DNA of 20,863 nt, from NCBI GenBank assembly GCA_041694835.1, contig JBGFRZ010000075.1:1-20863 (forward strand). The letters are read 5' to 3'. This document shows positions 274 to 16,377 of the stretch, one piece after another. How positions within the stretch are numbered: the stretch's first letter is position 1; each line of letters begins with the position of its first letter. The translations under genes were made by a program, and so were the position numbers. Below the pieces are notes generated by a model. The model saw nothing but the letters and a program-made list of their open reading frames with translations. It searched no databases and was not told where the DNA came from. The stretch comes from Ignavibacteria bacterium. GTDB taxonomy: Bacteria > Elusimicrobiota > Endomicrobiia > PHAN01.

Positions 274-1272
274 TTATCGCTTTATGTATTTTATCCCGTC
301 AGTAAGAAAAGTTATGGAGCTGGCGGCGTCGGTTCTGTATACCTTAATTTTTTTCCTGTTAAGTCTTTCTACGACCTCGTCGTGCGGATGACCGTAAGGA
401 TTTCCGCGCCCGCAGGATATAACCGCAACCGTAGGAGCGACGGCGTCAAGAAAAGGAAGAGATGTCGAAGTGCGGCTGCCGTGGTGAGGTACTTTTAGTA
501 TGGTCGATTTCAGCTCTTTTTTCCAGCCAAGAAGCTCAAGCTCCGCCTCGGTTTCGATATCCCCTGTAAACAACACTGTAAAATTTTTATATCTTAACTT
601 CGCCACAAGCGAGGAGTTATTTGTGGGCGAAGGGTCTTTTGCGGTAAAAAGCGAGCGAAGCGTAAGGAATTTCAATTCAAAATCATCTTCTTTTACAGGG
701 AGAATGTCGCCGGGTGAGGGGTTGATGTACTTTATCTTTTTGGCGCCAACCTTGTTTAGAAGTTCTTCAAGATATGGATTGGCCGATGTCTGCCCGTTGT
801 TGACAAACAAATCGACCTGGAGTGAATCTATTATTTTGATGGCTCCGCCGAAGTGGTCAATATGTGGATGGGTTATTATTATGGCATCGAGTTTTGTTAA
901 GTTGTTTTTGTTGAAATAAGGAAGTATTACGCTTTCGGCGGCATCGACTTCGGTTATCAACTCGCCCTCTTCTCCCTCTTCTATCGTAGCGCCTTTGATG
1001 GAGCCGGCGTCTATTAGTATGTTTTTCCCTTCGGGAGTCGATATTAATGCGGAGTCTCCCTGTCCAACGTCGAAAAATACAACTTTGAGGAGTTTTTCGG
1101 TCTTAAAAATTTCGCTCTCCTGAACGTTCGCCTTGACATATTTTTTTACGAAAAACCACCACAGACCGACAACGAGAAACGCGAGAAAAAATACGATGGC
1201 ATTTTCTACGGTGAATATTCTTAACGTTTTTTTCCGGGTTTTCTGATATTCTTTAAATTTTTGTTCTTCCAT
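274..1272 (-). CDS. Stand-alone ComEC/Rec2-type metallo-beta-lactamase-fold hydrolase (probable nuclease) with an N-terminal membrane anchor
   Basis: Motifs FFDVGQGDS, LIDAG, THPHIDHFGG (HxHxDH), NNSS, LFTGDIE, LKVPHHGS, NPYGHPH and YRTD are all intact. Hydrophobic helix AIVFFLAFLVVGLWWFFV near the N-terminus. GAGGA RBS at 1289-1285. Confidence 0.92.
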   Translation of the reverse strand: MEEQKFKEYQKTRKKTLRIFTVENAIVFFLAFLVVGLWWFFVKKYVKANVQESEIFKTEKLLKVVFFDVGQGDSALISTPEGKNILIDAGSIKGATIEEGEEGELITEVDAAESVILPYFNKNNLTKLDAIIITHPHIDHFGGAIKIIDSLQVDLFVNNGQTSANPYLEELLNKVGAKKIKYINPSPGDILPVKEDDFELKFLTLRSLFTAKDPSPTNNSSLVAKLRYKNFTVLFTGDIETEAELELLGWKKELKSTILKVPHHGSRTSTSLPFLDAVAPTVAVISCGRGNPYGHPHDEVVERLNRKKIKVYRTDAASSITFLTDGIKYIKR

Positions 1273-1306
1273 GATATTTTGTATTCCTCAAGCAACTACC
1301 AGAGAC

Positions 1307-1315
1307 ATTATATCA
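1307..1315 (-). promoter_or_regulatory. possible internal extended -10 promoter for the MBL gene
   Basis: TGATATAAT on the minus strand in the 67-nt gap upstream of the MBL gene and its RBS. No well-spaced -35 seen. Confidence 0.4.
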
Positions 1316-1339
1316 AATTTGAAAATTCCAAACTTTTAC

Positions 1340-3625
1340 CTATTTGAACCACCAGACGATTTTCTTCAATAAGTGAATCGGCAGTTTGAAAATGTTGCTG
1401 ACATGGCTCCCTTTTATATAGTATTTTTTCGGAATACTTCTTAAAAACGGGGAGAGCTTGTTGTGGACTTTTTTCTCCCCCCACCAAAGCCGTTCATCGG
1501 CAAAGCTTAGGTAAAGGCGCTTCTTGGCGCGGGTTACCCCCACATAAAAAAGTCGTCTTTCCTCGTCAACACGTTTCTGTTTTTCCTTTTTCGTAAGTTG
1601 CTTGTCCTCTATGTGGGCAAGCGGCACTATGCCGTCCTCTATGCCCACAAAAAATACGGTGTCGAATTCAAGACCCTTCGCCGAATGAAGCGTCATTATG
1701 TTTACAGAGGCATCCCGCGACTTTATCGCCGACTGCTCGGTCTCCTTGGATTTTGTGGCTATAGAATCGAGAAATATCTCTATCTTTTCCCACAGCGGAT
1801 ACATGCTTGCGCCCGCAAAAGTTATTTTCTCGAAATCCTCGGCTTCGGAGAGCAAATTCTTATACATCTTATAGGAAAACTCTTCTTCCTTCGTCAGATT
1901 CGCTTTGTTTTCGTAACTCAAAAGCAAGCCACTGTTTTCGATAACGCCCCTTACGGCATCCGAAAACGACCCGGCGCAGGAAAGCTCGGTTATTAAACCC
2001 TTAAATCTTCCGAGATTTTTTGAATCCACACTCTCTTCACCAAATCTCATTTGTAGTTTTTTAAATGTCTCGTCGGATGTGAGGATATCGGACATGTTTA
2101 TAAGATGTCCCGCTATAATCATCGCTTCTCCTTTGAGTTTAGCGGGCGGGAGTCCCATGATAAGTTTTATGTTCTCGTTTAACTTGTCCGCGAGGACTTT
2201 TGGAATATCTCTGCCTTCCTTCCACAGACAGTAGTACAGCAACACAGTCAGGTATCCCTTGATGTGCCTGACTTCGGGGCGGGCCCAAAATCGCGGGTCG
2301 TAAATTATACACGGGATTTTCTCTTCATCAAGAATTTTTCTTATGATTTTATTCTGGAAGTTCGTTCTATAAAGTATAGCGAAGTCGCCGTAATTCAGTC
2401 CAGCGTGAAGCGATTTGAGGCGGTTGATTTCAAACGCTACGAATTTTATCTCATCATGCTCATCCCTCGCATGATATACCGATATCTTCTCCCCCCAGTC
2501 AAGTTCTCCAGTGAATTTATTTTTCAGCGGCTCTATGATTTTGAGCAAATGCTTTGGTTTGACCGACCTGAATATCTCGTTGGCCGCGGATATTATGGTG
2601 GCCGTGGAGCGGTAGTTCTTCACGAGTTTTATCCTTGTCGTCTGGGGATAGTCCTTCTCGAAAAACAGTATGTTTCTTATGTCGGCTCCACGCCAGCCGT
2701 AAATGGATTGGTCGTCGTCACCAACGCAAAAAAAATTCTGCCTGACGCCAACGAGAAGTTTGCACATCGTATACTGGGCGTAGTTCGTGTCCTGATACTC
2801 ATCAACGAGGACATATTTGAATTTCGCATGGTAGTGCTCAAGTATGTTTGGATATTCTCTGAAAAGTTTGACGGTGTATATGAGCATGTCGTTGAAGTCA
2901 ATCGCGCCACGATTTTTAAGCAACTCCTGATATCTTTCATAGATAGCTGCGCTCGTTTTTTCCTTCCGCGTGGCTTTTTTCTTAAAGGTCTCCACATCGA
3001 GAAGCTCATTTTTCACGTGCTCTATTTTAGAGGCGATATCGTCGTATTTAACGCCTTTATGATGGCCGGAAAAAAAAGTGTCGTATGCCTCCTTGATGAT
3101 TTTATAGTTGTCTTCGATTATTCCAAAACCCGGCCTCAAGTTTACAATCTCACAGTTATACTGCCCCGTGATGTTTTCCTTGAGAATTTTTAGCGCTATC
3201 GAGTGGAACGTCCCCATCCACATCTTGGATATCTCGGTAAGAATTGGGCCGGGGTCTGAGGCGGGCAGCGCCTCCAGCCATAATTCTTCAACGAATTTTC
3301 TTATCCTTGCGCGCATCTCCTCGGATGCCTTTACGGTGAAGGTCAGGGCGATTATTTGCGACGGCTCCACACCTTTAAGGAGCAGAAAAATTATCCTGTA
3401 TACAAGCGCTGTGGTTTTGCCAGAGCCGGCGCAGGCGAGTATGAGAAGTGGCCCATCGGTTTTATGGTCATGTAGAACACTCTCCATCTGCTCCGGATTA
3501 AGGTGAGAGCATATCTTCAGAAAACCCGGAAAAAGTTTGGTGTTCTTAAAATACTCGTATTCCCTGTCGAATATTTTCCTCTGAGCGGGGTTTAGCTGCG
3601 AAGTTATCTGCGCATGCTCCGTCAT
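1340..3625 (-). CDS. pcrA: UvrD/PcrA/Rep-family SF1 DNA helicase (divergent paralogue)
   Basis: LNPEQ Q-motif, ACAGSGKT Walker A, VDEYQDTN Walker B, VGDDDQSIYGWRGA, NYRST, ILYRTN, MTLHSAKGLEF, EERRLFYVGVTRA. The start overlaps the upstream stop (ATGA at 3625-3622). The symbol denotes family; orthology to housekeeping pcrA is not established. Confidence 0.9.
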   Translation of the reverse strand: MTEHAQITSQLNPAQRKIFDREYEYFKNTKLFPGFLKICSHLNPEQMESVLHDHKTDGPLLILACAGSGKTTALVYRIIFLLLKGVEPSQIIALTFTVKASEEMRARIRKFVEELWLEALPASDPGPILTEISKMWMGTFHSIALKILKENITGQYNCEIVNLRPGFGIIEDNYKIIKEAYDTFFSGHHKGVKYDDIASKIEHVKNELLDVETFKKKATRKEKTSAAIYERYQELLKNRGAIDFNDMLIYTVKLFREYPNILEHYHAKFKYVLVDEYQDTNYAQYTMCKLLVGVRQNFFCVGDDDQSIYGWRGADIRNILFFEKDYPQTTRIKLVKNYRSTATIISAANEIFRSVKPKHLLKIIEPLKNKFTGELDWGEKISVYHARDEHDEIKFVAFEINRLKSLHAGLNYGDFAILYRTNFQNKIIRKILDEEKIPCIIYDPRFWARPEVRHIKGYLTVLLYYCLWKEGRDIPKVLADKLNENIKLIMGLPPAKLKGEAMIIAGHLINMSDILTSDETFKKLQMRFGEESVDSKNLGRFKGLITELSCAGSFSDAVRGVIENSGLLLSYENKANLTKEEEFSYKMYKNLLSEAEDFEKITFAGASMYPLWEKIEIFLDSIATKSKETEQSAIKSRDASVNIMTLHSAKGLEFDTVFFVGIEDGIVPLAHIEDKQLTKKEKQKRVDEERRLFYVGVTRAKKRLYLSFADERLWWGEKKVHNKLSPFLRSIPKKYYIKGSHVSNIFKLPIHLLKKIVWWFK

Positions 3626-4209
3626 AATTTTTCAATGCAAACCTCTTTGTACATGCACATCGCACACCTTAAAGGTTCGCAGTGACTCCTTTTGACGCTT
3701 ATTTCCTCTTTGTTTTCAATCTTCCTTTTTACCTCAGCCAGCTCCTGCGCCGCTCTTGTAATCTCGCCCAGAAACGAGGCATCGTTGACTATGGTATCCT
3801 CAGAGTTGTCCTCGAGGTATTTTATTATTCCTTTTTGGGGTCTTAAATTGTATTCGTTTTCCACAAGAAGAAAATACGCTGAAAGCTGGACTTGATACTC
3901 AATTGGCATAGTAGTTTTTTTAATGCCCGACTTATAATCTATGACGATTACTTCTTTTGTTTCTTTGTTTTTAATTACCATATCCGGCCGACCGTAGAGC
4001 ATGGTCTCGTCGTTGAGCCACATGCTAAGCGCGCCCCTTTCGGGGACATCTTCATAAATTACCTCATAATCTCCCGAAGCGGTGTAAAACTTTCCCTTCC
4101 CTGCCGTCGCTCTTTTTCGTTTCTTTCTTTGGTAAGTAAAAAGCAAATCAAGGATTATTATAAGCACCATCAACGACAAAAACGCCATCAGATAGTAGAT
4201 GTATCTCAT
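3622..4209 (-). CDS. Cas4-like PD-(D/E)XK nuclease, C-terminal body, with an N-terminal transmembrane helix
   Basis: GRPD...IDYKSG catalytic motifs, QLSAY (QxxxY) and C-terminal RCAMCMYKEVC (CxxCx5C). The N-terminal helix YIYYLMAFLSLMVLIIILDLLF is followed by the basic run QRKKRKR. Confidence 0.85.
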   Translation of the reverse strand: MRYIYYLMAFLSLMVLIIILDLLFTYQRKKRKRATAGKGKFYTASGDYEVIYEDVPERGALSMWLNDETMLYGRPDMVIKNKETKEVIVIDYKSGIKKTTMPIEYQVQLSAYFLLVENEYNLRPQKGIIKYLEDNSEDTIVNDASFLGEITRAAQELAEVKRKIENKEEISVKRSHCEPLRCAMCMYKEVCIEKL

Positions 4210-4340
4210 TTGTTTTTTTCCGGATTTGGAATTGTCGGCAGTTTTTTCTTTTTCCTCATTACTTCAAAAAGCCATTTTTTTTTGCAATAGAACCAACTGC
4301 CCAATTCTGAGGGGAGAATCCTGGTGGTTTTTTTTTCCAT
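4206..4340 (-). CDS. 44-aa peptide matching the N-terminal (first Cys) segment of Cas4-like nucleases; not in the ORF track
   Basis: Hand translation: MEKKTTRILPSELGSWFYCKKKWLFEVMRKKKKLPTIPNPEKNK*. Its ATG overlaps the comEC stop (TAATG) and its TGA overlaps the next ATG (ATGA). ILPSELGSWFYCKKKW resembles the Cas4 N-terminal pattern I-x-x-S-x-(L/I)-x-x-aromatic-x-Y-C-x-(R/K)-x-W. Confidence 0.75.
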   Translation of the reverse strand: MEKKTTRILPSELGSWFYCKKKWLFEVMRKKKKLPTIPNPEKNK

Positions 4341-7195
4341 TATTTCAGAATTGTTTTGATAGTATAATTTTCTCCGTCCGATGTCCAGATGGCGGCGCCC
4401 TGCTTGTCCGTTCTTATAGGCTTGATATCATGAATGTCTAAATTCTGGATGGTGCGTTGGATTTCGGATTCGTGGAAGTAATCGTCTGTTCTTCTCGCTC
4501 TTGGTACAAAACCATACTGGAAGACCGCATATTTAGGGGCGACAGTCTCGAGGAGTTCAGCGGTGAGAGCGGCGGGATTTCCGTTTTTTGGGAGCAAGAG
4601 CACGTCGCTTGGAAGCGCATCGGCGCGCTTTTCCACAAGTTCCCACTGAGCAGCACGGCCCAATTGTGTAGTAATCAACACGCTCGTTTTTCCATAGCTA
4701 ACCCTGACGGTTGAGGCGTTATCCTCGGCACCGGCGGCATCCGCTCCTTGCAGGAGCGCGACCTTAAATACATTGTCCCCGAATTTTCTTTCATAAATTA
4801 TATCGCCCGAAACGGCTTTTTTCACTTTTGTATTGTCTCTGGTTATAATCTCCTTAAGTTCGTACCACGCCAGATAGAGATTCGCCGCTTGAGAAGAGCG
4901 CGGATTTGCAAGAAGACGCCAGTCGCCGTAAATCGTCAAAAATTTATGATAACCGGTCCCGTAAGTCAGGTCGTCCGGGTTGTAAGGCAGATATATCTTC
5001 CCTGCCCGCCAGTGGTTTAAGATATGAGACGCTCCGCTGATGTTCGATGGCTTGATAGCGGTAAGCACAAGATAATCGAGTTTTCTTATATTATATCTGG
5101 AAAATGCCGGAGCGATGACACTGGAACCTGCCCCCCACTCCCCGCCGGTCCCGGCATCTATGAGAATCGATTTTCTATCAGGGGTTTCTATTAAGACGGA
5201 ATTGCCAAAGCCAACATCGAAAAAAGTAATTCTTGAAGTGTGTTTCTGGGTCGCATAGATGATAGATATAACGGCAGCAATCAACACAAATATGGCTGAG
5301 CCGATGTGAAAGAACCTTTTTCTCAGATACCCTTCTTCAAATACGTCCGCCAATCTCAAAAAAAGCAGCCTTGCCTGATATCTGAGCGGCGTCCAGAATA
5401 CGAAAAGCAAAACCCCAAGGTAATAAACAAGTAGCTCAAACGGCGATGGGATGCTCATATAAGGATAAGGGAAAAGCCTCGCAAAAAAAGTCGCCATGCC
5501 CATAAATAATCTGCAGCAAAGCCAGTTGAAGGCGTTTATCCACAGAGCGAGTGTTATGCCGACCGAGGAAAGTCCTACGCTCGTGAAAACGAGGTCTATG
5601 AGTCCTGCGAGAAGTCCGAACTGGACTATGAATCCTATAAGGGGTATCGCTATGAAGTTTGCATACATCCCGGCTATCGGAAATCTCTGGAAGTAAACGG
5701 CGCTCAAGGGATACATCATACCTATCTGGATCGCGAACTGTGCGTAAAAGAAGGCGACAAACCATTTTGGAAGGTATTCGATGCCGAAGCCGCTTAGGGG
5801 CGTTCTTCTCTCGCGCATTATAGCGACAGTAAAAAGAAGAGCGAAAATTATCAGATACTTTATCACGAAATCGCCGTCCTGAAATATCGCAGGATTTATA
5901 ATGACAAGAACTGTGGAGCCAAGCACAAGTGTGATAAAAACGAGAAAGAGCCAGCCACGACCGATGAATTTGAATACACGTTCAACCGGGCCCGTTATCA
6001 TCGCCAACGACCAAACGGCCATAAACGAAAGCACAAAACTTCCGTCGGGAAGTTTCAGCGGGTCGAATATCAATATGATCATCGCTGTGATGGGTATGGT
6101 GAGGACAGAAGCATGGCCGAGGCGCATCTTCATTACGGAGCGGAAGAATTCCATTATTGAAAACATTATAGCGGCGCGGCGCGTCGCCGGAGATGCGCCC
6201 GTAATCAGAGCAAATATGATAAGTCCGAATGCGACGAAAACGAAAGAAAACTTCGAAGGAAGTTTCATTATTTTTGAAAACGCTATGAGCAAGAACGCCA
6301 CAAATCCTACGTGAAGGCCGCTGACAGCCAGGACATGTGCTACGCCCGTGGCCTGAAACTCGCTTTTCACCTTCAAGGGAACGCCTCCTCGAAGACCCAA
6401 TGTAACGCCGCCTAAAAAAGCCGACTCGGGATAAGGCATCGTCTTTCTTATGGTGAGAAGTATTCTTTTTTTAAGGCCCAGCGCTATCCTCCAGAGGACC
6501 GGAATTTCCCCTGTTCCAATATAAGTGATGTCTTCCGTGCCTCTCAATGGGCGAGTGGTAGCGTATATGTTTCTCGCCTTCAGGTATGCGGCGTAGTTGA
6601 ATCCGGCGGGATTTGAGAGTTTTCTTGGTTCATTTATTGAGGAGGTGATTTCTATCCTGTCACCGTACGATATTGAGTGATAGTAATCGCCTATGCTCGG
6701 ATATATCTTGGCGCGGATATATCCTGTTTTTCCTTTCAACTTTACGACGTTCCACGGCTCTCTTTCCGGGTCGGGTATTATTTCATCCGGTAGTATGTCG
6801 ATATTCGTGAAATCATCTCTCTGGTCGGGGTCAGCTATTATCGTCCCTTTTACCTTTGTCTGAGCAAAGAAAGATGCGTCAAGAAATTTCGTTATGTGAT
6901 GTTCCGATGTGATGTCAACCTCGCGGTAGTAGTTTGCCGTGGCCGAAAAAAACGCGGCGAACATTATAAAAACCACCGCGACTTTTCTTTTTCTCGCAAG
7001 AAAATTCAAAATCCCGGCAAGCAACATAAGCCCGGCAATCAACCATATAGTCGTATTAAGCGAAAAAGGAATGAAAGACAAAAACGGGATGAAATCGCCA
7101 ATAGGCTTCCATGCGGGAAGTCCCGGAAAAAAAATAAAAGGGAAAGCAACGCCAGATACATAAGCGTAAGAAAGCCAGATTACAAAAATTTCCAT
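4340..7195 (-). CDS. comEC: ComEC/Rec2 DNA uptake channel (DUF4131/OB region, Competence domain, degenerate MBL domain)
   Basis: NPAGFNYAAYL, FQATGVAHVLAVSGLHVGF, TGASPATRRAAIM, SFVLSF and ANFIAIP, with many TM helices. C-terminal FFDVGFGNS/LIDAG/IRTDKQGA MBL scaffold lacks the metal ligands. Confidence 0.93.
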   Translation of the reverse strand: MEIFVIWLSYAYVSGVAFPFIFFPGLPAWKPIGDFIPFLSFIPFSLNTTIWLIAGLMLLAGILNFLARKRKVAVVFIMFAAFFSATANYYREVDITSEHHITKFLDASFFAQTKVKGTIIADPDQRDDFTNIDILPDEIIPDPEREPWNVVKLKGKTGYIRAKIYPSIGDYYHSISYGDRIEITSSINEPRKLSNPAGFNYAAYLKARNIYATTRPLRGTEDITYIGTGEIPVLWRIALGLKKRILLTIRKTMPYPESAFLGGVTLGLRGGVPLKVKSEFQATGVAHVLAVSGLHVGFVAFLLIAFSKIMKLPSKFSFVFVAFGLIIFALITGASPATRRAAIMFSIMEFFRSVMKMRLGHASVLTIPITAMIILIFDPLKLPDGSFVLSFMAVWSLAMITGPVERVFKFIGRGWLFLVFITLVLGSTVLVIINPAIFQDGDFVIKYLIIFALLFTVAIMRERRTPLSGFGIEYLPKWFVAFFYAQFAIQIGMMYPLSAVYFQRFPIAGMYANFIAIPLIGFIVQFGLLAGLIDLVFTSVGLSSVGITLALWINAFNWLCCRLFMGMATFFARLFPYPYMSIPSPFELLVYYLGVLLFVFWTPLRYQARLLFLRLADVFEEGYLRKRFFHIGSAIFVLIAAVISIIYATQKHTSRITFFDVGFGNSVLIETPDRKSILIDAGTGGEWGAGSSVIAPAFSRYNIRKLDYLVLTAIKPSNISGASHILNHWRAGKIYLPYNPDDLTYGTGYHKFLTIYGDWRLLANPRSSQAANLYLAWYELKEIITRDNTKVKKAVSGDIIYERKFGDNVFKVALLQGADAAGAEDNASTVRVSYGKTSVLITTQLGRAAQWELVEKRADALPSDVLLLPKNGNPAALTAELLETVAPKYAVFQYGFVPRARRTDDYFHESEIQRTIQNLDIHDIKPIRTDKQGAAIWTSDGENYTIKTILK

Positions 7196-7202
7196 AATTT
7201 AC

Positions 7203-7265
7203 CCCGTTAGAAATCCGATGTCAAAGGCATCGGCATCCTGCCATGGCGAGATTATTTCTAACGGG
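7203..7265. repeat. Small palindromic element with a perfect 12-bp terminal inverted repeat and an internal hairpin (REP/MITE-like)
   Basis: CCCGTTAGAAAT (7203-7214) pairs with ATTTCTAACGGG (7254-7265). Inner stem CCGATG (7215-7220)/CATCGG (7228-7233). Palindrome GCCATGGC at 7240-7247. Confidence 0.8.
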
Positions 7266-7416
7266 ATATACTTTTTTTTGTCACCGACGGATAATAGTTT
7301 TCATTGGTCTGATAAATCTGCTCGACAGTGTGGTCTTTTTTGACAAAGCTTATTATAGCGCCCGCTATAATCGCTACGGCAATCATTAGAATAAGTATCT
7401 TTGATGCGGCATCCAT
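7258..7416 (-). CDS. 52-aa single-pass membrane peptide, hypothetical; not in the ORF track
   Basis: Hand translation: MDAASKILILMIAVAIIAGAIISFVKKDHTVEQIYQTNENYYPSVTKKSISR*. One clear hydrophobic helix followed by KK, preceded by an extended -10. Confidence 0.55.
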   Translation of the reverse strand: MDAASKILILMIAVAIIAGAIISFVKKDHTVEQIYQTNENYYPSVTKKSISR

Positions 7417-7424
7417 AGTTAGTG

Positions 7425-7433
7425 ATTATACCA
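7425..7433 (-). promoter_or_regulatory. extended -10 promoter, probable start of the comEC transcription unit
   Basis: TGGTATAAT on the minus strand, 8 nt before the ATG at 7416. TTGCGA lies 19 nt upstream of the -10 (suboptimal spacing). Confidence 0.55.
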
Positions 7434-7437
7434 AATT

Positions 7438-7716
7438 TTACAGCCTTTTTCGCAAATGCGTTAGAAATTTATATAAAATCCATCAGGTCAACGCTCCAAA
7501 AAAAGCACTCATAAAATTCACCCTGTAAGCAACGTTTCCAAAGGGGATAAGCGAGACGAATATTTTTCCAATAAGCATATAGAGCGGATATCCGGAAGGG
7601 TGGGCGACACATAGGGTGAACGACGCTGAAATCAAATCGCCCGAGTCCCTGTAGGGAGATACTGAGGGATGAGGCGTAAATATGTAAAGAATCAGATGAG
7701 AAATAAAGTAAAGCAT
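7438..7716 (-). pseudogene. Truncated DUF2723 (TMEM260-like membrane glycosyltransferase) gene remnant
   Basis: LYIFTPHPSVSPYRDSGDLISASFTLCVAHPSGYPLYMLIGKIF...GNVAYRVNFMSAFFGALT matches the DSG(E/D)...HP(P/S)GYPLY...AYRVN N-terminal signature. There is an in-frame TGA at 7485-7483, then WILYKFLTHLRKRL* to 7438. Family members are normally several hundred aa. Confidence 0.75.
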
Positions 7717-7745
7717 ATTTTGATGCAGGGCACAAGAGCACAAGT

Positions 7746-7921
7746 CAGAGGACAGAGGACAGAGGATTAGTGGCTCGTGGTTCGTGGCTCGTTTCCGCCA
7801 GTCATCAGTCACCAGTCACCGGTCACCAGCTACTATTCGCTATTCCCTACTGCCTATTGCCTATTCCCCGCTGTTAAATATTGCCTGTTGCCTATTGCCT
7901 GTCGTATTTGCTATTCGCTAT
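7746..7921. repeat. Patchwork of different 7-nt tandem repeats
   Basis: (CAGAGGA)x3 at 7746-7766; GTGGCTC/GTGGTTC/GTGGCTC at 7770-7790; five CAGTCAC-like units at 7799-7833; five TATTSSC-like units at 7834-7868; TATTGCC/TGTTGCC/TATTGCC at 7879-7899; further TATTCGC-like units to about 7921. Confidence 0.9.
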
Positions 7922-7930
7922 TTTTTCTTT

Positions 7931-10915
7931 TTACTTCTTAATCCTTATCACCTTACACTCGTCTATATAAAAAAGAGAGCCTTCTACGGCTTGGGTGCCG
8001 TAAATCCGGCCGATGTTTCTCATGTAGTTTTTGAGCTGAAAGATATGTTTCTCTGAATACTCCTCGCCAGTTTTATATTCGATGATCTCCATGCCGCCAT
8101 CAAGAAATATTATTCGGTCTATTCTAAATTTTTCGCCTCCCGAACTCACGAATTCCACTTCATTCCTGCCGGCTTTCCCGAACCACTTCGACAATTCCAT
8201 TTTTTCCATAGCATTTAAAATAGTCGTCTTTATTTCATTTTTATCCCCATCGAATTTCATCTCAGCTGCCGAGTTGTTTATCAGCGATTCCAAAAAATAC
8301 GGGAATTCATCCAATGAATCTATCGTGTCTATCTTTGAAAGAATGTGATGGATGAAAACTCCCCTCTCGGAGCATCTCATCCTTTTGGCGTCCGTATAAT
8401 AATCTAAATCGACCTCTTCCTTTCTTATTCTTTCGCTCCAGTGCACCTTTGATTTAGAAGTCAATATCCCGCAGGGATTTTGAATCGCATCTTTGATTTT
8501 CCTGACGAATTCTGTTTCATCGCTGACGCCTATATTGCAGTTCTCAAACATGACGGTAAACGGATTCCTGTTGCGATCGCTTTCAAGCATATAGACATAA
8601 AGTTCGTCCGCGGCGCGAGTCATCCCCACATAAAGCGAGTTAAGGTCGTCGAGCAACTCTTCTTCCTCGTTTTCACACTGCATCTTTCTCAACTCGGCGG
8701 AAAAAATAAGATAGTCCTTTTTTATGTACCTCAAATCCAAAGTGCCATCTTTCACGACGTGTTTGTTTTCTTTTTTCTGGGCGGGCAGAAAAGGCAGCAC
8801 GACCACCGGATAACTCAGCCCCTTGGCTTTATGAATCGTGGATACGTTTACGGCATCAATGAACTTCGGCAGTACAACCTGAAACTCTTCCGGCTCGGCT
8901 TTTTGCCAGTGGTCGAGAAAGTTTATAAGCGAATTCTCCCTTAAGTTTTCCCGGTCTTTAAGAATCTCAAGCATCCTCATTATGAACGCATCGTGGCCGG
9001 GAAATTTTTTCTGTATATCGTATTTATCCAAAATCAATCGCACAATATCGTAAGGAGCAAGACGATTCGAAAGTTCGAGGATTTTCCCAATATATTCGTC
9101 GTAAACCGGGCCAAATCTCTCGGAGAACAAAATGTAAAGAGGTCGGCCGTCAAAAGAACCAAAAAGCCTTTTTTCTTCAAAAAAACTAAAAATTGCGCGT
9201 CTTTCAATTCCGGAAACAGCGCGAAAAATATCGCCGGAAACAAAAGACGCGAAAGAAAGATTGTCCGATGGCATTTCCAAAAAACCGAGGAATGAAATGA
9301 TTCCCCGGATAACCGAGTTTTCCCTCGCGCTCATAGTAATTTCCGAAACCACCGGATAGCTTTCCGCAAGAAGCCATGATGTGATTTTTCTCACCTCTTC
9401 GTTCTTTCTTACAAGAATCGCTATATCGCTGCGATTATATCTCGCGCACAAATCCGAAATCAGCGGTATTATGTTTTCTTTCGTCATCTCGTCGAGTTCT
9501 TCTTTGTTTTTTTCCGCAAAGAGCTTTTTGACAACCACACGGCCGCCACCCGGATCTTTCCGTCGAGACGCTTTCTGACATGCAGTGGTATATGAAGAAA
9601 GTCTGTTTTTGGCGAGACCGGTTTTGGCAAGATTTTCCATACTAAAAATTTTATTATTGAACTCGACAATCTTCTTCTTACTTCTGAAATTTCTGTCGAG
9701 AAGATAACCCTTTTTATTCTTGATGAGAAAGTCATTCTTGGCGATGTCGAAAAGACCCGCCTGTCCACCCCTAAATCGATAAAGCGCCTGCTTCTTGTCC
9801 CCCACATAAAACAAACTGCCACCTGAAGCGAGCGAGTTTTCAACAAGAGGAAATAGATTTTTCCACTGAATCTCGCTTGTATCCTGAAACTCGTCTATCA
9901 GATAGTGATTTATTTTTTCTCCAAGCATATAGTATATGGACGGCACAGAACCTTTTTTGATGTAATCGCTTACTTCCATGTTAAGATCCGATATAAAAAC
10001 TATTCTGCGGGCATGCTTGTACTCTTGAAGCTTTTCCTCGACGGCTCTGTATATGGATATGTAAGAACCAAGTCTGGTGCGGGATAGCAATTTGAAATAA
10101 TCGTCCATCTTTTTTCTCAACCGCGCGGGCATTTCCTCAAGTTGGGTTTCGGTTATTTTCTCAAAATCAAACTCTGTGGCTTTTCTGATTATCGACCCGG
10201 CTGTTCTGTTTTTCTTCAATGTTCCACCGTAATTTATCAAATCGTTTTTTATTTTTTCTCTCAAATCAACAAGTCTCTCAAGCGAGCCGCCCGATTTAAA
10301 CTTCAGTCCATATGTCTTTTCCTTCTCGTAAAGAAACTCTATATTTTTCAAGAACAACTTTTTGGGATTCCAGATGCCCGAGCTTTCGGTAGTCAGATAA
10401 GAAGTGATGAAATCATCGAAAATTCCCGATATGCGCGAGCCCGATTTCAGACCGGAGAGGACATCGTCAACCACATACTCTATGCATTCGGAAGGATTCA
10501 TCTCTATATCGTACCTCGGCGGCAGACCCATTTCCACGGATGAGGAGAGAGCCACGGTGTTTATGAAGCTGTCTATGGTCTGGACGTTGAAATCAAGGTA
10601 GTTCTCAAGTATCTCTCGAACAATCGTGATGGCATTTTTGGAGAGCTGCCTGTCGGAAAAGCGGGCGAGGTAGCCTGAATCGTCGTACTCTTTCAACTTT
10701 TTGATTGTTTTTTCATCCCCCTGAGACACTTTTTTCATCCAATCGAGGATTCTGTGTTTCATCTCGTTCACGGCATCGTTCGTGAAGGTTATGGCCAGTA
10801 CATTTCTGAAATTAAAGCCGGAAAGAATAAGAGTGACAAAGTGAAGCGTTAGCTGATAGGTCTTGCCGCTGCCCGCCGATGCCTCGAGTGTTTTTATCTG
10901 GGGTGATTTTGACAT
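7931..10915 (-). CDS. addA: AddA/RecB-like SF1 helicase with a C-terminal PD-(D/E)XK nuclease
   Basis: EASAGSGKT, AITFTN, TIDSF, IDEFQDTS, VGDKKQALYRFRGG, NFRS, TIHKAKGL and YVGMTRA; C-terminal RG...H...E...RIDR...IIEYKTG...QL..Y. The ATG at 10915 is preferred over the TTG at 10936. Confidence 0.88.
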   Translation of the reverse strand: MSKSPQIKTLEASAGSGKTYQLTLHFVTLILSGFNFRNVLAITFTNDAVNEMKHRILDWMKKVSQGDEKTIKKLKEYDDSGYLARFSDRQLSKNAITIVREILENYLDFNVQTIDSFINTVALSSSVEMGLPPRYDIEMNPSECIEYVVDDVLSGLKSGSRISGIFDDFITSYLTTESSGIWNPKKLFLKNIEFLYEKEKTYGLKFKSGGSLERLVDLREKIKNDLINYGGTLKKNRTAGSIIRKATEFDFEKITETQLEEMPARLRKKMDDYFKLLSRTRLGSYISIYRAVEEKLQEYKHARRIVFISDLNMEVSDYIKKGSVPSIYYMLGEKINHYLIDEFQDTSEIQWKNLFPLVENSLASGGSLFYVGDKKQALYRFRGGQAGLFDIAKNDFLIKNKKGYLLDRNFRSKKKIVEFNNKIFSMENLAKTGLAKNRLSSYTTACQKASRRKDPGGGRVVVKKLFAEKNKEELDEMTKENIIPLISDLCARYNRSDIAILVRKNEEVRKITSWLLAESYPVVSEITMSARENSVIRGIISFLGFLEMPSDNLSFASFVSGDIFRAVSGIERRAIFSFFEEKRLFGSFDGRPLYILFSERFGPVYDEYIGKILELSNRLAPYDIVRLILDKYDIQKKFPGHDAFIMRMLEILKDRENLRENSLINFLDHWQKAEPEEFQVVLPKFIDAVNVSTIHKAKGLSYPVVVLPFLPAQKKENKHVVKDGTLDLRYIKKDYLIFSAELRKMQCENEEEELLDDLNSLYVGMTRAADELYVYMLESDRNRNPFTVMFENCNIGVSDETEFVRKIKDAIQNPCGILTSKSKVHWSERIRKEEVDLDYYTDAKRMRCSERGVFIHHILSKIDTIDSLDEFPYFLESLINNSAAEMKFDGDKNEIKTTILNAMEKMELSKWFGKAGRNEVEFVSSGGEKFRIDRIIFLDGGMEIIEYKTGEEYSEKHIFQLKNYMRNIGRIYGTQAVEGSLFYIDECKVIRIKK

Positions 10916-10938
10916 CTTTTTACAGTTCGCAGACAAAA

Positions 10939-12120
10939 TTAAGACAGACCTATGTCGGATGGCGCCCGTCCAAGTGATTTTAGAAGCTCTATGACATCGG
11001 ATATGCGCTCGGCGATCTTCCTGCCGGAGGCTGCTCTTTGAGGATAAAGATAATAAAGCGATTGATACTCTTCGGGGGTTACATTTATCATGACGGAGTT
11101 CGCTCCCGAAAGGAGAGCCTTTTGAGCGGCATTTTTTCTATCAAGAGTTTCGGTGGCTGTAGTAACAAGTATCCGAGAGTCGGGATAAATTATTCTGGTC
11201 CTCGCTATAGTGTCCAAAACTAAATCGATAGGAGGGGCGTTAACTCCACAGAGGGGTGTGTCGGGGTTTGGAATAAGCGGTCCAAAAGAGAACATCTCGA
11301 CACCCATGGACGCCGTCGTTTTTATATCTTCCAATATATCTTTTTTCGACTGACCTGGAAGGCCAAGAAGAAATCCGCTGATTATCATATAACCGATATT
11401 TTTCAAACGACCAAGCAGCGAGAGCCTTTCTTCTAAATGGTGTCCCGGACGATATTTTTCGTATAAAGATGCGTTAGCGGTTTCAAATCTCATGAGAACC
11501 CCGCGGGCGCCAGAGTCGTAGAGCTTCTTGTATGTAGATATCTCGCGCTCGCCTATGCTTAAAACTATGAGGACCGGGTTTTTCTCCATTACCGTTTTCA
11601 CTATCGCCGCGAGTTTTTCATCGTCATAAAACGGATCTTCGCCGGATTGGAAAACAAGAGCCTTGAAGCCCAATTTATTTACGGCATAATCCGCAGCTGA
11701 GACGATATCTTCAATGCTCATTCTGTAACGGGACAAATTGACATTATCTTTTCTTAACCCGCAGTAAAGACAGTTGTTCCGGCAGTGGTTTGAAAACTCA
11801 ATTATCCCGTGAACACACGAAGAATTTCCTGTGTGTTCCCTGCGGAGCTTGTTGGCAATCTCTCTGATATTTTCCTTTTTTTCCGTAAGTCTGATATCCG
11901 TTTTGGCGAGTTCGTCGAAGAGATCCTTCCACGCCTCAATCGCCAGTTGCGCCTCTTTTTCTCCGACTTTCCTTATTACAAAGCCGCCTTGAGCGTAAAC
12001 ATAATCACCGACGGAAATCTCGTAAAAATCACTCCTGGCGCGCTTACGCTGACCGAAGTAATCAACCGTCGCAAAATTTTTTTCCACCTCTACGACTTTC
12101 CCGGGAATTGAATAACACAT
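10939..12120 (-). CDS. Fusion of a HypC/HybG/HupF chaperone domain and a HydE-like radical SAM enzyme (393 aa)
   Basis: The N-terminus MCYSIPGKVVEV...ATVDYFG...VGDYVYAQGGFVIRKV..KEA follows the HypC pattern MCxxIPxxV...VGDxV. It continues into IIEFSNHCRNNCLYCGLR (CX3CX2C), RYRM, QSGED, LSIGE, RFET, GLPGQS, FGPLIPNPDTPL, TTA, GANSVM and YYLY, typical of HydE. The start is set at the ATG at 12120 so that Cys is residue 2. Confidence 0.88.
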   Translation of the reverse strand: MCYSIPGKVVEVEKNFATVDYFGQRKRARSDFYEISVGDYVYAQGGFVIRKVGEKEAQLAIEAWKDLFDELAKTDIRLTEKKENIREIANKLRREHTGNSSCVHGIIEFSNHCRNNCLYCGLRKDNVNLSRYRMSIEDIVSAADYAVNKLGFKALVFQSGEDPFYDDEKLAAIVKTVMEKNPVLIVLSIGEREISTYKKLYDSGARGVLMRFETANASLYEKYRPGHHLEERLSLLGRLKNIGYMIISGFLLGLPGQSKKDILEDIKTTASMGVEMFSFGPLIPNPDTPLCGVNAPPIDLVLDTIARTRIIYPDSRILVTTATETLDRKNAAQKALLSGANSVMINVTPEEYQSLYYLYPQRAASGRKIAERISDVIELLKSLGRAPSDIGLS

Positions 12121-12172
12121 ATTATTGACTTGAGACCGATGACACTCCGCTAAAACCTTGCCACAAAGTAGG

Positions 12173-12708
12173 AATAGGACGCAGATTTTCGCAGATTTGA
12201 TAGATATTAAAAACATCTGCGCCAATCTTGTCAAAATCGGCATTTACCTGCGTCCAAAAATGAAGAAGCGGAGCAGAAATAGGACGCAGATTTTCGCAGA
12301 TGAGTTTATAGTTGCTTTAATCTGCGTTTATCAAAGTTGTTTCTGCGTTCATCTGCGTTCAATTATTTTTTAGGACGCAGATTTACAGGATTATCGCAGA
12401 TTAAAAACTTTACCGCGAAATCACGAAAATTAGAAATCACAAAATTCTTTACAAGTATTTTCGTGTTTTCGCGCTTTCGTGATTCAAATCTTTTTTCTTC
12501 TGCGTTCAAAAATAAAAAAGTGGTTGTAGAAATAGGACGCAGATTTTCGCAGACGAGTTTATAGTTGCTTTAATCTGCGTTTATCAAAGTTGTTTCTGCG
12601 TTCATCTGCGTTCAATTATTTTTTAGGACGCAGATTTTCATAGATTTGGTAGATATGCCAATTTTGTCAACATCGGCATTGAGCTGCGTCCAAAAATAAA
12701 AAAGCGGT
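12173..12708. repeat. Array of five self-complementary units (order A-B-C-B-A) between hydG and hypC-hydE
   Basis: TAGGACGCAGATTT begins at 12175, 12280, 12371, 12533 and 12624. The complementary CTGCGT(C/T)CAA begins at 12248, 12353, 12500, 12606 and 12684. Positions 12275-12384 and 12528-12637 form a 110-bp direct repeat with one mismatch (12301 T vs 12554 C). Confidence 0.92.
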
Positions 12709-14535: not shown

Positions 14536-15480
14536 TCAAGAGCCTCTTTCAAAAAAATAAAGTATTTCGTTCAGGGTCGCTTTAACGCTTTTGGACATTT
14601 CTCCGGACAAACTCATTTTCTCAGGTTGAACACCTATCACGAATATTTTTGCTGTGACATTTTCCTGAAGATAATCCAAAAAAAGCCTTATTCCAAAGCC
14701 ATGCGTAGAAAAGTTTAGATTCGGTAATTGTTCGGGCGAAAAAATTCCGAGAGTGCCGGGGGGCGTTCCATTTGAAATATAAATTGAATCAAACACAATG
14801 AGTGTGTCTGGATTTCTCGCGGATATTTTTGAAACATAGTTTTCCGGAGACATCCCGGCATCAATATACAGGCATCCCGGTTTTTTCTTCGCTTTTCTTA
14901 TAACTTCGGGTCCGAAACCGTCATCCCCCTTCATGGGATTCCCCGCTCCGACAAAAACGGTGTTTTTTCCGAGTGAAAGATACAGCGCAATAAAAGCAGC
15001 GATTTTGCGGGGGGTGTTTATGTCAACAAAAACGTGTTTTTCATCGCGCCACCCCGAAAAAGACGCTCCCGCGTCCACATAAAACAAAATCGTCGACTCG
15101 TCGATGGACAACCTGGCGATGATATCATCCGCCCGTCCGTCTTTTAAAATAAATATTTTCTTAAATTCTTTTTTGCTGTAACCTTCCACGATAAGCAGAT
15201 CCAACAAATCTTCAAACTTGTTAAAAATTTCTTCCGGTTCAAAATCGGCATTTTTCCTCATTGAAAATGAGACTTTTTTATCTGATGCCACGGCGGAAAC
15301 ATGGGCGCCGGCTTCAAAAAATCGATGCGAATCCTTCCCCGGAACATCGGCGGCGAAATCCCCGCCGGAATGCTTCAACGTTCCCACTCTCAGTCCCATC
15401 GCTTTGAATATCTGCACGAGTGATTCGATGAGTTTTGTTTTACCTGAACCGCTTTCGCCGACCACAGAGATTATATCCAT
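14536..15480 (-). CDS. Fusion of a MobB-like P-loop NTPase and a HycI-type hydrogenase maturation endopeptidase
   Basis: Residues ~1-165 carry VVGESGSGKT, RVGTLKH, DVPGKDS.RF.EAGA and DLLIVEGY (MobB). Residues ~172-314 carry VGAGNPMKGDDGFG, IDAGMSPEN, PD.LIVFD, STH and IGVQP (HycI/A31 peptidase). One uninterrupted frame. Confidence 0.88.
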   Translation of the reverse strand: MDIISVVGESGSGKTKLIESLVQIFKAMGLRVGTLKHSGGDFAADVPGKDSHRFFEAGAHVSAVASDKKVSFSMRKNADFEPEEIFNKFEDLLDLLIVEGYSKKEFKKIFILKDGRADDIIARLSIDESTILFYVDAGASFSGWRDEKHVFVDINTPRKIAAFIALYLSLGKNTVFVGAGNPMKGDDGFGPEVIRKAKKKPGCLYIDAGMSPENYVSKISARNPDTLIVFDSIYISNGTPPGTLGIFSPEQLPNLNFSTHGFGIRLFLDYLQENVTAKIFVIGVQPEKMSLSGEMSKSVKATLNEILYFFERGS

Positions 15481-16377
15481 TCAATTATTGAAAATCATCC
15501 GCCATAATCTCGATATTTTCCCCGCATCGGAGCGTGAGGCAACCTTTATTCTTTCTTTTTTATCAACTGTCGCAAAACCTGCGACGGAATCGTTGAATTT
15601 AAACTCAAACAATACCTTCTTGTCACGTCTCCTCGCTTTTGATATCTGGCAGGCTAGGGGGAGTATTCCTTCATCGCTCTTTCCTCCAAGCATTTCAGCG
15701 AGATACCCGGCTATCTCCCTCCGGTCGGTTATTTTTAGCCACACAACGTCATTTTCCGATAGAGCCGGCGCAGGAACGCCATCATCATCGACAAGCGGTT
15801 CAACTTCAAGCATAATTTTCCCCGATGCTTCACACCGCTCATGTGCAGAGGGGGGGTCTATGCTGATCTGGGTTTTATACGGCTCTTCGGAATAATCGAT
15901 TGAAACCACTATGTTTTCCGTGTCAAATACCTCGTTCAGAAACTCTTTCATTTTATCTTCACAACTCTGTTCACTCTCGAAAAAAAACACCCGTTCGATT
16001 ATTCGTGGGATTTTCTCCTGCATTATGTTTGAAAAATTTGGAAGAACGCTTTCCTCAAGTTTGTATGAATAAATGGCTTTGTCGATATCTTCCCATGAAA
16101 GAGAAAAATCGAGTTCATAAATTTTAGGGTTTTCCGAAATAACTGCGCTGGTCGTAAGAATATTGGCCTGTTTTATATCAAATATAATCAGGAATGCACC
16201 GTATATGAATTTGTCGGGAAGAATGAGCCTGCCTTTCACCACGCCAAGCCCCGGGGATACTTTGTTCAAAAAATCGAGAGCTTCGGCGAAATTGCCTTTC
16301 GCACTTTTATAAGCAAGTTCCGCCTCATAGTGATTGCATCCCGCAGTTTCCATCAAAAGCTTTATTTTATTTTCCAT
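15481..16377 (-). CDS. Hypothetical protein with an N-terminal UBA-like three-helix domain
   Basis: 298-aa ORF packed between xerC (2-nt gap) and mobB-hycI (0-nt gap). KIKLLMETAGC...EAELAYKSAKGNFAEALDFL resembles the EF-Ts N-terminal/NAC UBA-like repeat. Confidence 0.75.
   Translation of the reverse strand: MENKIKLLMETAGCNHYEAELAYKSAKGNFAEALDFLNKVSPGLGVVKGRLILPDKFIYGAFLIIFDIKQANILTTSAVISENPKIYELDFSLSWEDIDKAIYSYKLEESVLPNFSNIMQEKIPRIIERVFFFESEQSCEDKMKEFLNEVFDTENIVVSIDYSEEPYKTQISIDPPSAHERCEASGKIMLEVEPLVDDDGVPAPALSENDVVWLKITDRREIAGYLAEMLGGKSDEGILPLACQISKARRRDKKVLFEFKFNDSVAGFATVDKKERIKVASRSDAGKISRLWRMIFNN

Follow-up and report, generated by a model that had tools for sequence, protein, structure and literature searches.

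Here, we describe five adjacent genes on the minus strand of a 20.9-kb stretch of DNA (the window), which is the entire contig C14 of a 1.9-Mb, 97% complete metagenome-assembled genome (MAG) from the phylum Elusimicrobiota. They encode a long ComEC protein (positions 4340-7195; 951 amino acids (aa); Pfam families DUF4131, Competence and Lactamase_B), a 44-aa peptide corresponding to a detached N-terminal Cas4-like helix with the first Fe-S cysteine (4206-4340), a Cas4-like PD-(D/E)XK nuclease body (3622-4209; 195 aa), a paralogous UvrD/PcrA-type superfamily 1 (SF1) helicase (1340-3625; 761 aa; UvrD-helicase and UvrD_C) and a free, transmembrane (TM)-anchored, ComEC-type nuclease of the metallo-beta-lactamase (MBL) fold (274-1272; 332 aa; Lactamase_B). 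The genes form a rare, conserved operon that is restricted to Elusimicrobiota. On balance, we favour the view that this module encodes accessory import machinery, with ComEC as the channel and an SF1 protein as the motor, in which the imported DNA is degraded, probably for nutrition.

A first-pass annotation of the window had proposed a membrane complex in which an SF1 helicase pulls DNA through ComEC while tethered nucleases cut it. This remains the best reading, with the amendment that the helicase lies outside the minimal core of the module and is absent from one family (f3). The gene coordinates, three start/stop overlaps (TAATG at 4342-4338, ATGA at 4209-4206 and ATGA at 3625-3622) and 67-nt spacer between the helicase and MBL genes (1273-1339) given in that annotation proved exact when the junctions were read off the sequence. 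Papers are cited below by PMC number.

The split Cas4-like nuclease

The nuclease body matches PDDEXK_1 (51 bits; profile positions 120-247) and Cas_Cas4 (PF01930; 30.8 bits against a cut-off of 22.7; profile positions 55-159) over the C-terminal half of the profiles only, and it scores 43 bits with TIGR00372, below the cut-off of 65. The peptide alone matches no Pfam or NCBIfam family. The RecB-type motifs D, (D/E)xK and QxxxY are all present in the body, where D76, D91-x-K93, Q108..Y112, C182, C185 and C191 are invariant in 11 aligned sequences; in the peptide, P10, E12, G14, W16, C19, K22 and W23 are invariant in seven aligned loci. The four-Cys pattern of the [4Fe-4S] cluster, C...CX2CX5C, is complete only in trans, with C19 on the peptide and C182, C185 and C191 on the body. 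The first-pass annotation had called this a split Cas4-like nuclease, and both pieces are indeed there; we go further and, from their conservation, read them as an ancient, conserved two-piece enzyme that is predicted to be functional and is not a decayed gene.

Other explanations for the split were considered and rejected. Sequencing error or pseudogene formation does not account for it, as both open reading frames (ORFs), key residues included, are maintained between families at 32-53% identity. Programmed -1 frameshifting was suggested by an A_AAA_AAC heptamer lying in frame before the ATGA in the window, but two other genomes (G001 and G002) keep the overlap without this site. Because no slippery site is common to the loci compared at this junction, the window, G001 and G002 among them, translational coupling fits better than frameshifting. 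The ATGA overlap between peptide and body is found in five of the seven loci, and the remaining two have gaps of 38 and 53 nt.

We modelled the peptide together with body residues 30-195 and a 4Fe-4S cluster, in three runs and with three controls. The complex scored 0.89 (0.90, 0.89 and 0.89 in the individual runs) against 0.01 for the best control, with between-run contact agreement of at least 85% and a partner predicted local distance difference test score (pLDDT) of at least 73. Of 157 solved pairs, 116 reached the pass mark used here, as did 2 of 215 mismatched pairs. This model supports the binding of peptide and body to each other.

Hydrophobic anchors were scored by a custom Kyte-Doolittle script, not a dedicated predictor. 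The body has such an anchor at residues 1-28 (score 2.66), followed by eight basic residues. Because these come after the N-terminal hydrophobic segment, the N-terminus is predicted to lie outside the membrane and the nuclease in the cytoplasm. Were the two pieces fused, the basic peptide would end up on the wrong side of the TM anchor, which may be the reason for the split and is a further argument against frameshifting.

Two points weigh against this picture of the enzyme. The passing complex model may reflect likeness to single-chain Cas4, because the pieces are halves of a solved fold; the only solved structure matched by the sequences of the Cas4-like pieces was 4ic1, weakly (E 0.009). 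Secondly, a metal-binding His upstream of the Cas4 core corresponds to His62 of 4IC1 (PMC13621843), and no counterpart of it is evident in the Elusimicrobiota peptide or body. The N-fragments of outgroup relatives carry a G..FH motif.

Such relatives occur in Acidobacteriota, Chloroflexota, Firmicutes and other groups. At 10 outgroup loci, an N-fragment of 78-117 aa, comprising a Cys helix, the G..FH motif and, at its C-terminus, a TM helix, adjoins a body whose first element is a TM helix. In longer unsplit relatives, a single chain holds the Cys helix, 2-10 TM segments and the core. Of the 150 best representatives, a TM segment stands at the start of 85 of the 102 short forms, and all 43 proteins of 236-700 aa have at least one. 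At 19 further loci from outside the phylum, no ComEC, helicase paralog or MBL was found near the Cas4-like gene (blastp, 1e-3); four of these loci (L041, L044-L046) are ordinary helicase-nuclease fusions. A Pfam search of 40 neighbouring proteins at eight of these 19 loci found no partner gene common to them. Because the outgroup relatives keep longer membrane forms away from ComEC, helicase and MBL, we interpret the Elusimicrobiota pair as a reduced member of a wider membrane-integrated Cas4-like family, recruited to ComEC.

Members of this wider family include L029-L034, L043, L056, L057, P0142, P0168 and P0189, and no description of the family was found in the literature searched.

With CRISPR-associated and solo Cas4 proteins (SSO0001, PDB 4IC1), the pair shares the D, (D/E)xK and QxxxY motifs and the C...CX2CX5C pattern. 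It differs in that the first Cys is on a separate peptide, that a TM helix takes the place of the region from the first helix to the core, and that cas1, cas2 and a CRISPR array are not nearby. On this last point the first-pass annotation was right: none of the 14 window ORFs scanned matches a Cas1 or Cas2 family, no CRISPR-like array was found in the window, and the only Cas1 of the genome is on another contig (C77).

UvrD and Cas4-like pairs are already in print. UvrD-Cas4 fusions and operons, like AddAB and RecBCD, combine an SF1 3'-5' helicase with a RecB/Cas4-family Fe-S nuclease; they are soluble and are found in restriction-modification, Dcm/Vsr or repair contexts, and the text of the paper does not mention transmembrane, ComEC or split forms (PMC5704561). 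The nuclease described here, in contrast, is in two pieces, membrane-anchored and tied to ComEC. The new elements are a candidate motor from SF1 and a membrane Cas4 in two pieces, and no description of a ComEC/Cas4-like/helicase module was found in the published main texts searched. A naturally split Fe-S nuclease, with its cluster built from two polypeptides at the membrane, is unusual and may be useful as a tool.

Channel, detached nuclease and helicase

The window comEC is a divergent paralog, additional to the canonical copy of the genome, which encodes 716 aa on contig C39 and adjoins an NAD kinase gene. The two proteins are 22-28% identical, and against TIGR00361 (cut-off 190.05) the canonical copy scores above the cut-off (220.3 bits) and the long ComEC below it (175.5 bits). 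The first-pass annotation had taken the window protein for ComEC as such, which the paralogy amends. The Competence (channel) domain is present (PF03772, 136 bits). Channel residues, for example H287, S292-G293-L294-H295, T332-G333, P336 and R340, are invariant across 16 aligned ComECs, the canonical one included. The long ComEC is laid out as N-terminal TM helices, a DUF4131/OB fold (PF13567, 72.6 bits; beta strands at 113-228 in the AlphaFold2 model), the Competence channel domain, extra TM helices and a C-terminal MBL fold. The AlphaFold2 model has a pLDDT of 79 and a predicted TM-score (pTM) of 0.70.

The MBL fold of the long ComEC is retained and its metal ligands are lost. The domain matches PF00753 with 28.8 bits, and its best solved match is 9ic4, a ComEC beta-lactamase-like domain (E 4.7e-15; TM-score 0.82 on the target). 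In place of the ComEC-type HxHxDH, GD and HHGS, it has TAIKPSNISG, ITTQLG and LPKNGN. We aligned the C-terminal domains of 14 long ComECs with 12 free MBLs encoded next to them. None of the 14 long ComECs retains motif II (HxHxDH), the Asp of motif IV or motif V (HH), and 11 of the 12 free MBLs keep all of these, the copy in G053 being partly degenerate.

The free MBL of the window has the intact motifs DVGQGD, THPHIDHFGG, FTGDIE and VPHHGS. Its best NCBIfam match is to the C-terminal part of ComEC_Rec2 (TIGR00361; 164 bits; positions 441-661 of 663), and its hydrophobic anchor at residues 16-46 (score 2.35) has the more basic flank on the N-terminal side, so the catalytic domain is predicted to be outside the membrane. 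What the first-pass annotation had recorded simply as a free MBL nuclease is probably a ComEC-type C-terminal domain that replaces the dead domain of the long ComEC in trans. If so, a dead nuclease domain in ComEC beside a live detached copy would show the job of a domain moving to a separate gene.

A precedent for such an arrangement exists. The C-terminal domain of ComEC is an extracellular Mn-dependent nuclease important for transformation (Silale et al., PMC8579336). In Streptococcus pneumoniae, the ligands of this domain are substituted, leaving it apparently inactive, and a separate membrane-bound nuclease, EndA, which lies outside the membrane, is used instead and degrades the strand that is not imported (PMC8579336). 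By analogy, the long ComEC and free MBL may follow the same logic, with the difference that the stand-in here is a detached ComEC-type MBL domain from the same operon. To our knowledge, EndA is not an MBL-fold enzyme.

Some observations speak against a strict replacement. Motif II of the canonical ComEC on C39 is degenerate too (TIPDIPHYGT), and contig C79 (L014 in G000) carries three tandem free ComEC-type MBL genes at 4063-6932 on the minus strand, encoding 308, 327 and 310 aa. Adjacency is the only basis for pairing the free MBL of the window one-to-one with the long ComEC.

Three UvrD-family genes are present in the genome. The housekeeping PcrA is encoded on contig C63 (714 aa); it has the tudor domain and matches TIGR01073 over its full length with 800 bits, below the cut-off of 911.2. 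The window helicase, 31% identical to it, reaches 468.8 bits with the same model, also below the cut-off, and is without the tudor domain PF21196; its Pfam scores are 263 bits for UvrD-helicase and 171 bits for UvrD_C. The window helicase is therefore separate from the housekeeping enzyme, a point on which the proposal of the first-pass annotation depended. Because canonical ComEC and PcrA are encoded elsewhere in the genome, the module can be seen as made of paralogs standing beside the standard genes.

The relatives of the window helicase form a clade of about 18 clusters scoring 415-1234 bits, none of which has the PcrA tudor family, whereas canonical PcrA reaches at most 364 bits. A single member of the clade (P0027) comes from Hydrogenedentota. 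The SF1 motifs GSGKT, DEYQDTN, GDDDQSIY.WRGA, NYRS, KGLEF and TRA do not vary among 14 clade members and canonical PcrA, so an active ATPase is expected. The clade has an N-terminal extension of about 40 aa, and the tudor domain is replaced by a basic amphipathic C-terminal tail of 25-35 aa.

Membrane signals had been reported in the first-pass annotation for the Cas4 body, the MBL and the helicase. The first two have anchors, as described above, whereas the helicase tail is amphipathic and basic and is not a TM helix. Its hydrophobic moment is 0.40-0.61 in nine homologues; inside the window helicase, the 95th percentile is 0.47. This is only suggestive of membrane association. The Kyte-Doolittle script found no TM segment in the helicase, and this counts against the reading that we favour.

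PcrA/UvrD enzymes travel along single strands with 3'->5' polarity. When DNA enters ComEC, its 3' end is proposed to lead (PMC12663950). If such a motor were held at the exit of the channel, its steps toward the 5' end would draw the strand inward. In the ComEC-ComFA-ComFC system of Firmicutes, similarly, an ATP-driven motor for single-stranded DNA (ssDNA) works on the cytoplasmic face of the ComEC channel, and the OB fold and MBL-fold domain face outward (PMC12663950). The differences are that the candidate motor here is an SF1 UvrD/PcrA paralog and there the superfamily 2 protein ComFA, that the channel here is a paralog with a dead MBL domain, and that a cytoplasmic Fe-S nuclease is co-encoded. 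The operon also lacks a ComFC gene; the check for comFA and comFC proposed in the first-pass annotation turned up a ComFC-like gene on contig C72, at 111 bits and below the cut-off. Conservation of ComFA is reported to be confined to Firmicutes (PMC12663950). The motor that pulls ssDNA through ComEC in other bacteria is unsettled, and the operon offers a testable candidate, at least for a paralogous channel.

Distribution and the sister form

We searched one set of 401 Elusimicrobiota genomes for the long ComEC (E <= 1e-35), the helicase paralog (E <= 1e-120) and the TM-Cas4 body (profile A1, E <= 1e-12). The three occurrences are nested: 17 genomes have the long ComEC, eight of these have the helicase paralog, and seven of those eight have the TM-Cas4 body, each at the same locus as the long ComEC. 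The eighth helicase genome (G048) encodes helicase and MBL on one contig and the long ComEC on another, and no TM-Cas4 was found in it with the same profile and threshold.

The gene order, on whose conservation the first-pass annotation had staked its proposal, repeats in six other genomes from three families. This arrangement (form A) reads long ComEC, peptide, TM-Cas4, in some cases a PLC-like gene, helicase and TM-MBL. It is intact on a single contig in G000, G001, G059, G063 and G053, and can be followed as far as the contig ends allow in G002 and G061. In family f19, all three loci scanned have an additional Zn-dependent PLC/P1-like protein of 362-367 aa between the Cas4 body and the helicase.

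Metagenomes extend these counts. Of 14 loci found there, nine are of the Elusimicrobiota type, and one of them (L048) duplicates a locus already counted, which leaves eight further contigs. The module order is seen in L047 and L050-L054. All loci that reach far enough upstream (L047, L050-L053) have the long ComEC and the peptide, and L047, L050, L051, L053 and L054 reach the helicase downstream. The components are nonetheless rare: the helicase clade amounts to about 18 clusters among 5.8 billion proteins, and the Cas4 body has seven representatives at E <= 1e-30 among 1.84 billion.

The first-pass annotation had taken the overlaps as the link between the genes. All three are present in the window, but those between ComEC and peptide and between body and helicase are not conserved; only the overlap of peptide and body is kept across loci.

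A sister form of the module (form B) is found in the six genomes of family f3 and in G230. Here, the long ComEC is followed by a tandem double Cas4-like Fe-S nuclease of 608-655 aa and a TM-MBL, in either order, and the helicase is absent. Both f3 ComEC copies scanned have a staphylococcal-nuclease (SNase) domain within the outer N-terminal region, and the next gene encodes alkaline phosphatase at two of five f3 loci (G020 and G026, not G010, G013 or G018). Of the other genomes with a long ComEC, two fit neither form: G306 has ComEC and MBL alone, on a short contig, and G396 has other neighbours. Forms A and B have in common a core of long ComEC, Cas4-type Fe-S nuclease and free ComEC-type MBL. 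Since form B is without a helicase, we regard the helicase as an addition in one branch, outside the minimal core.

In G007 (L006:8731-10242, minus strand), the tandem-Cas4 gene of the sister form appears as two ORFs (196 and 303 aa); either another split that arose independently or a mistake in the assembly may explain this.

The company kept by the module bears on two alternatives. The first is a cytoplasmic repair system like AddAB or AdnAB, made up of the helicase, the Cas4-like nuclease and the product of the AddA-like gene upstream, with the comEC paralog merely adjacent. An AddA/RecB-like helicase-nuclease gene does lie upstream on the same strand in the window (7931-10936) and also in G001, and operons that pair UvrD with a Cas4-like protein, and are presumed to act in repair, have been described (PMC5704561). 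However, the nuclease is membrane-anchored, and TM-Cas4 stands beside long ComEC and helicase in all seven genomes that have it. The AddA-like gene is absent at the f19 and f23 loci and is set off from the module by a glycosyltransferase gene in G001, and an AddB-like protein of 891 aa is encoded elsewhere, beside priA on contig C28. In AddAB, moreover, the AddB subunit is an inactive helicase fused to an Fe-S nuclease, whereas the motifs of the window helicase are active and its nuclease is a protein apart, which does not agree with an AddAB arrangement. We consider a repair system quite improbable.

The second is defence or surveillance at the membrane, destroying phage or conjugative DNA on entry. 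UvrD-Cas4 fusions and pairs are frequent in defence contexts (PMC5704561), and module proteins matched the PADLOC models RTasHel, GajB, LmuA, RTasMBL and Cas4. These matches are generic. The housekeeping PcrA scores higher than the module helicase on the same models (415 against 304 for RTasHel and 386 against 284 for GajB), another free MBL of the genome matches the same MBL models, and no GajA, reverse transcriptase or other signature partner was found among the nine proteins scanned with PADLOC. With the housekeeping PcrA outscoring the module helicase, this alternative loses its only support. The surroundings of the module are conserved and chromosomal within families, and the only mobile gene seen at module loci is an IS200-type gene inserted at the f19 PLC position in G061. 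Moreover, a ComEC channel imports DNA at the initiative of the cell itself. A defence role thus seems improbable to us.

The PADLOC assignment to defence systems, Gabija included, was accordingly rejected after the housekeeping PcrA control.

Proposed role and genomic surroundings

The import machine that we favour would work as follows. Outside the membrane, the TM-anchored MBL nuclease would substitute for the dead domain of the long ComEC and degrade one strand, a step that parallels the C-terminal domain of Bacillus ComEC and EndA of S. pneumoniae. The other strand would pass through the Competence-domain channel with its 3' end leading. At the cytoplasmic face, the PcrA/UvrD-type motor, which either its amphipathic tail or its partners would hold close to the membrane, would reel this strand in, and the membrane-tethered two-piece [4Fe-4S] Cas4-like nuclease (44-aa peptide plus TM body) would cleave it. 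The gene content, its conservation and co-occurrence, the state of the motifs and the paralogy are observed, and a complex model supports binding of peptide to body; the steps of the mechanism are inferred from these.

Because the canonical ComEC is kept and the sister form has further nucleases, the purpose is most likely breakdown for nucleotides and phosphate, not recombination. Degradation is favoured by the retained canonical ComEC, by a nuclease tethered where the strand would emerge, and by the nucleases and phosphatase of the sister form. Uptake in general is favoured by Tad-pilus genes (RcpC and CpaF-type), which lie directly downstream of the MBL gene in f19 and f23 (two of two loci scanned). 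A comparison can be made with haloarchaeal Hvo_1477 and its thermonuclease/COG2333 MBL relatives, in which surface SNase-type and ComEC-type MBL domains consume extracellular DNA, a surface nuclease of this type being needed for growth on it (PMC3929857). Those proteins are without a Competence channel domain, and a helicase or Cas4 partner is not reported for them in the excerpted text (PMC3929857).

Several points weigh against an SF1-driven, nutritional machine. The helicase is missing from f3 and G230, and in G048 helicase and MBL stand apart from the long ComEC; the motor would therefore be dispensable for the core. The nutritional role, which we think probable, is read from gene content alone, and all the module-bearing genomes are uncultured MAGs.

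A rival reading is a specialised transformation system: DNA taken in by the long ComEC would serve recombination, the helicase would drive the import, and the Cas4-like nuclease would do no more than trim ends or take out damaged or foreign parts ahead of DprA and RecA. The gene dprA (19307-20437, minus strand) lies on the contig and strand of the module, the ComEC channel motifs are conserved in 16 of 16 aligned ComECs, Tad-pilus genes adjoin the module in f19 and f23, and a ComFA reported only in Firmicutes means that another motor is needed elsewhere (PMC12663950). Against this, the canonical ComEC is retained in the same genomes, and dprA is 12 kb away, adjoining topA. The first-pass annotation had pointed to dprA and addA as neighbours; they are on the same strand in the window, but in f19 and f23 they are unlinked to the module. 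Nucleases also gather in every form (SNase, PLC/P1-like, tandem Cas4, with phosphatase as a neighbour), which fits degradation better than protection of the strand. We see specialised transformation as rather unlikely.

Export would reverse the direction: the helicase would unwind and the nuclease nick the DNA of the cell itself, which would then exit single-stranded by way of the ComEC-like channel, for instance to become matrix DNA. The parts list of channel, helicase and nuclease would allow this. However, with an active nuclease beyond the cytoplasm, and an SNase domain likewise on the outer side, the exported product would be destroyed, and we know of no ComEC that exports DNA. We give export very little credence.

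Returning to degradation of imported DNA, a fuller account of it is possible, and we put it forward tentatively. The genomes would have two ComEC machines with divided labour, the canonical one for transformation and the long-ComEC module dedicated to DNA consumption, with an SF1A import motor, a two-piece Fe-S Cas4 that shreds the emerging strand and a detached ComEC nuclease outside, the split Cas4 belonging to the wider membrane-integrated family. Whether competence serves genes or food is an old argument, and a plain ComEC together with one wired to predicted nucleases on either side of the membrane, in one genome, amounts to a natural experiment.

On the minus strand, the genes of the window run from a helix-turn-helix gene through dprA, topA, a xerC/D-type recombinase gene, a 298-aa ORF of no known family, a MobB-HycI fusion, hydG, a HypC-HydE fusion and the AddA/RecB-like gene to a 736-nt gap and the five module genes. 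Directly 5' of the ComEC start, at 7196-7224 on the minus strand, is a weak promoter-like site (TTGACA-17-TAAATT, 10 of 12 matches); such sites number 18 across the region, compared with 13.4 +/- 3.3 in shuffled sequence, which is no clear excess. A 52-aa ORF with a hydrophobic stretch (7258-7416, minus strand) lies immediately upstream of the comEC start. Rfam gave no matches to the window at gathering scores.

The gap (7196-7930) was considered as the remains of a module gene, and this was rejected, as the 70-aa remnant within it belongs to an unrelated glycosyltransferase gene. This remnant (7507-7716, minus strand) preserves only the first 70 aa of a TMEM260-like/TPR glycosyltransferase and is 69% identical to an intact 705-aa gene between the AddA-like gene and comEC in G001. 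The remainder of the gap contains short GC-poor repeats.

Farther from the module, the fusions flanking hydG, HypC-HydE (10939-12243, minus strand; also in G001) and MobB-HycI (14536-15480, minus strand), combine [FeFe]- with [NiFe]-hydrogenase maturation parts. The 298-aa ORF (15481-16377, minus strand), with the recombinase on one side and MobB-HycI on the other, has no Pfam, NCBIfam or PADLOC match. A 132-nt tandem repeat (17287-17527; 1.8 copies, 97% matches) in the 3' part of topA coincides with two zinc-ribbon repeats. Elsewhere, contig C5 of G000 (L063:3623-5443, plus strand) encodes a 606-aa protein with a full N-terminal PD-(D/E)XK_1 match and a C-terminal GGDEF diguanylate cyclase domain, and in G013 (L008:770-3553, plus strand) an intein with a LAGLIDADG domain interrupts a UDP-glucose dehydrogenase gene.

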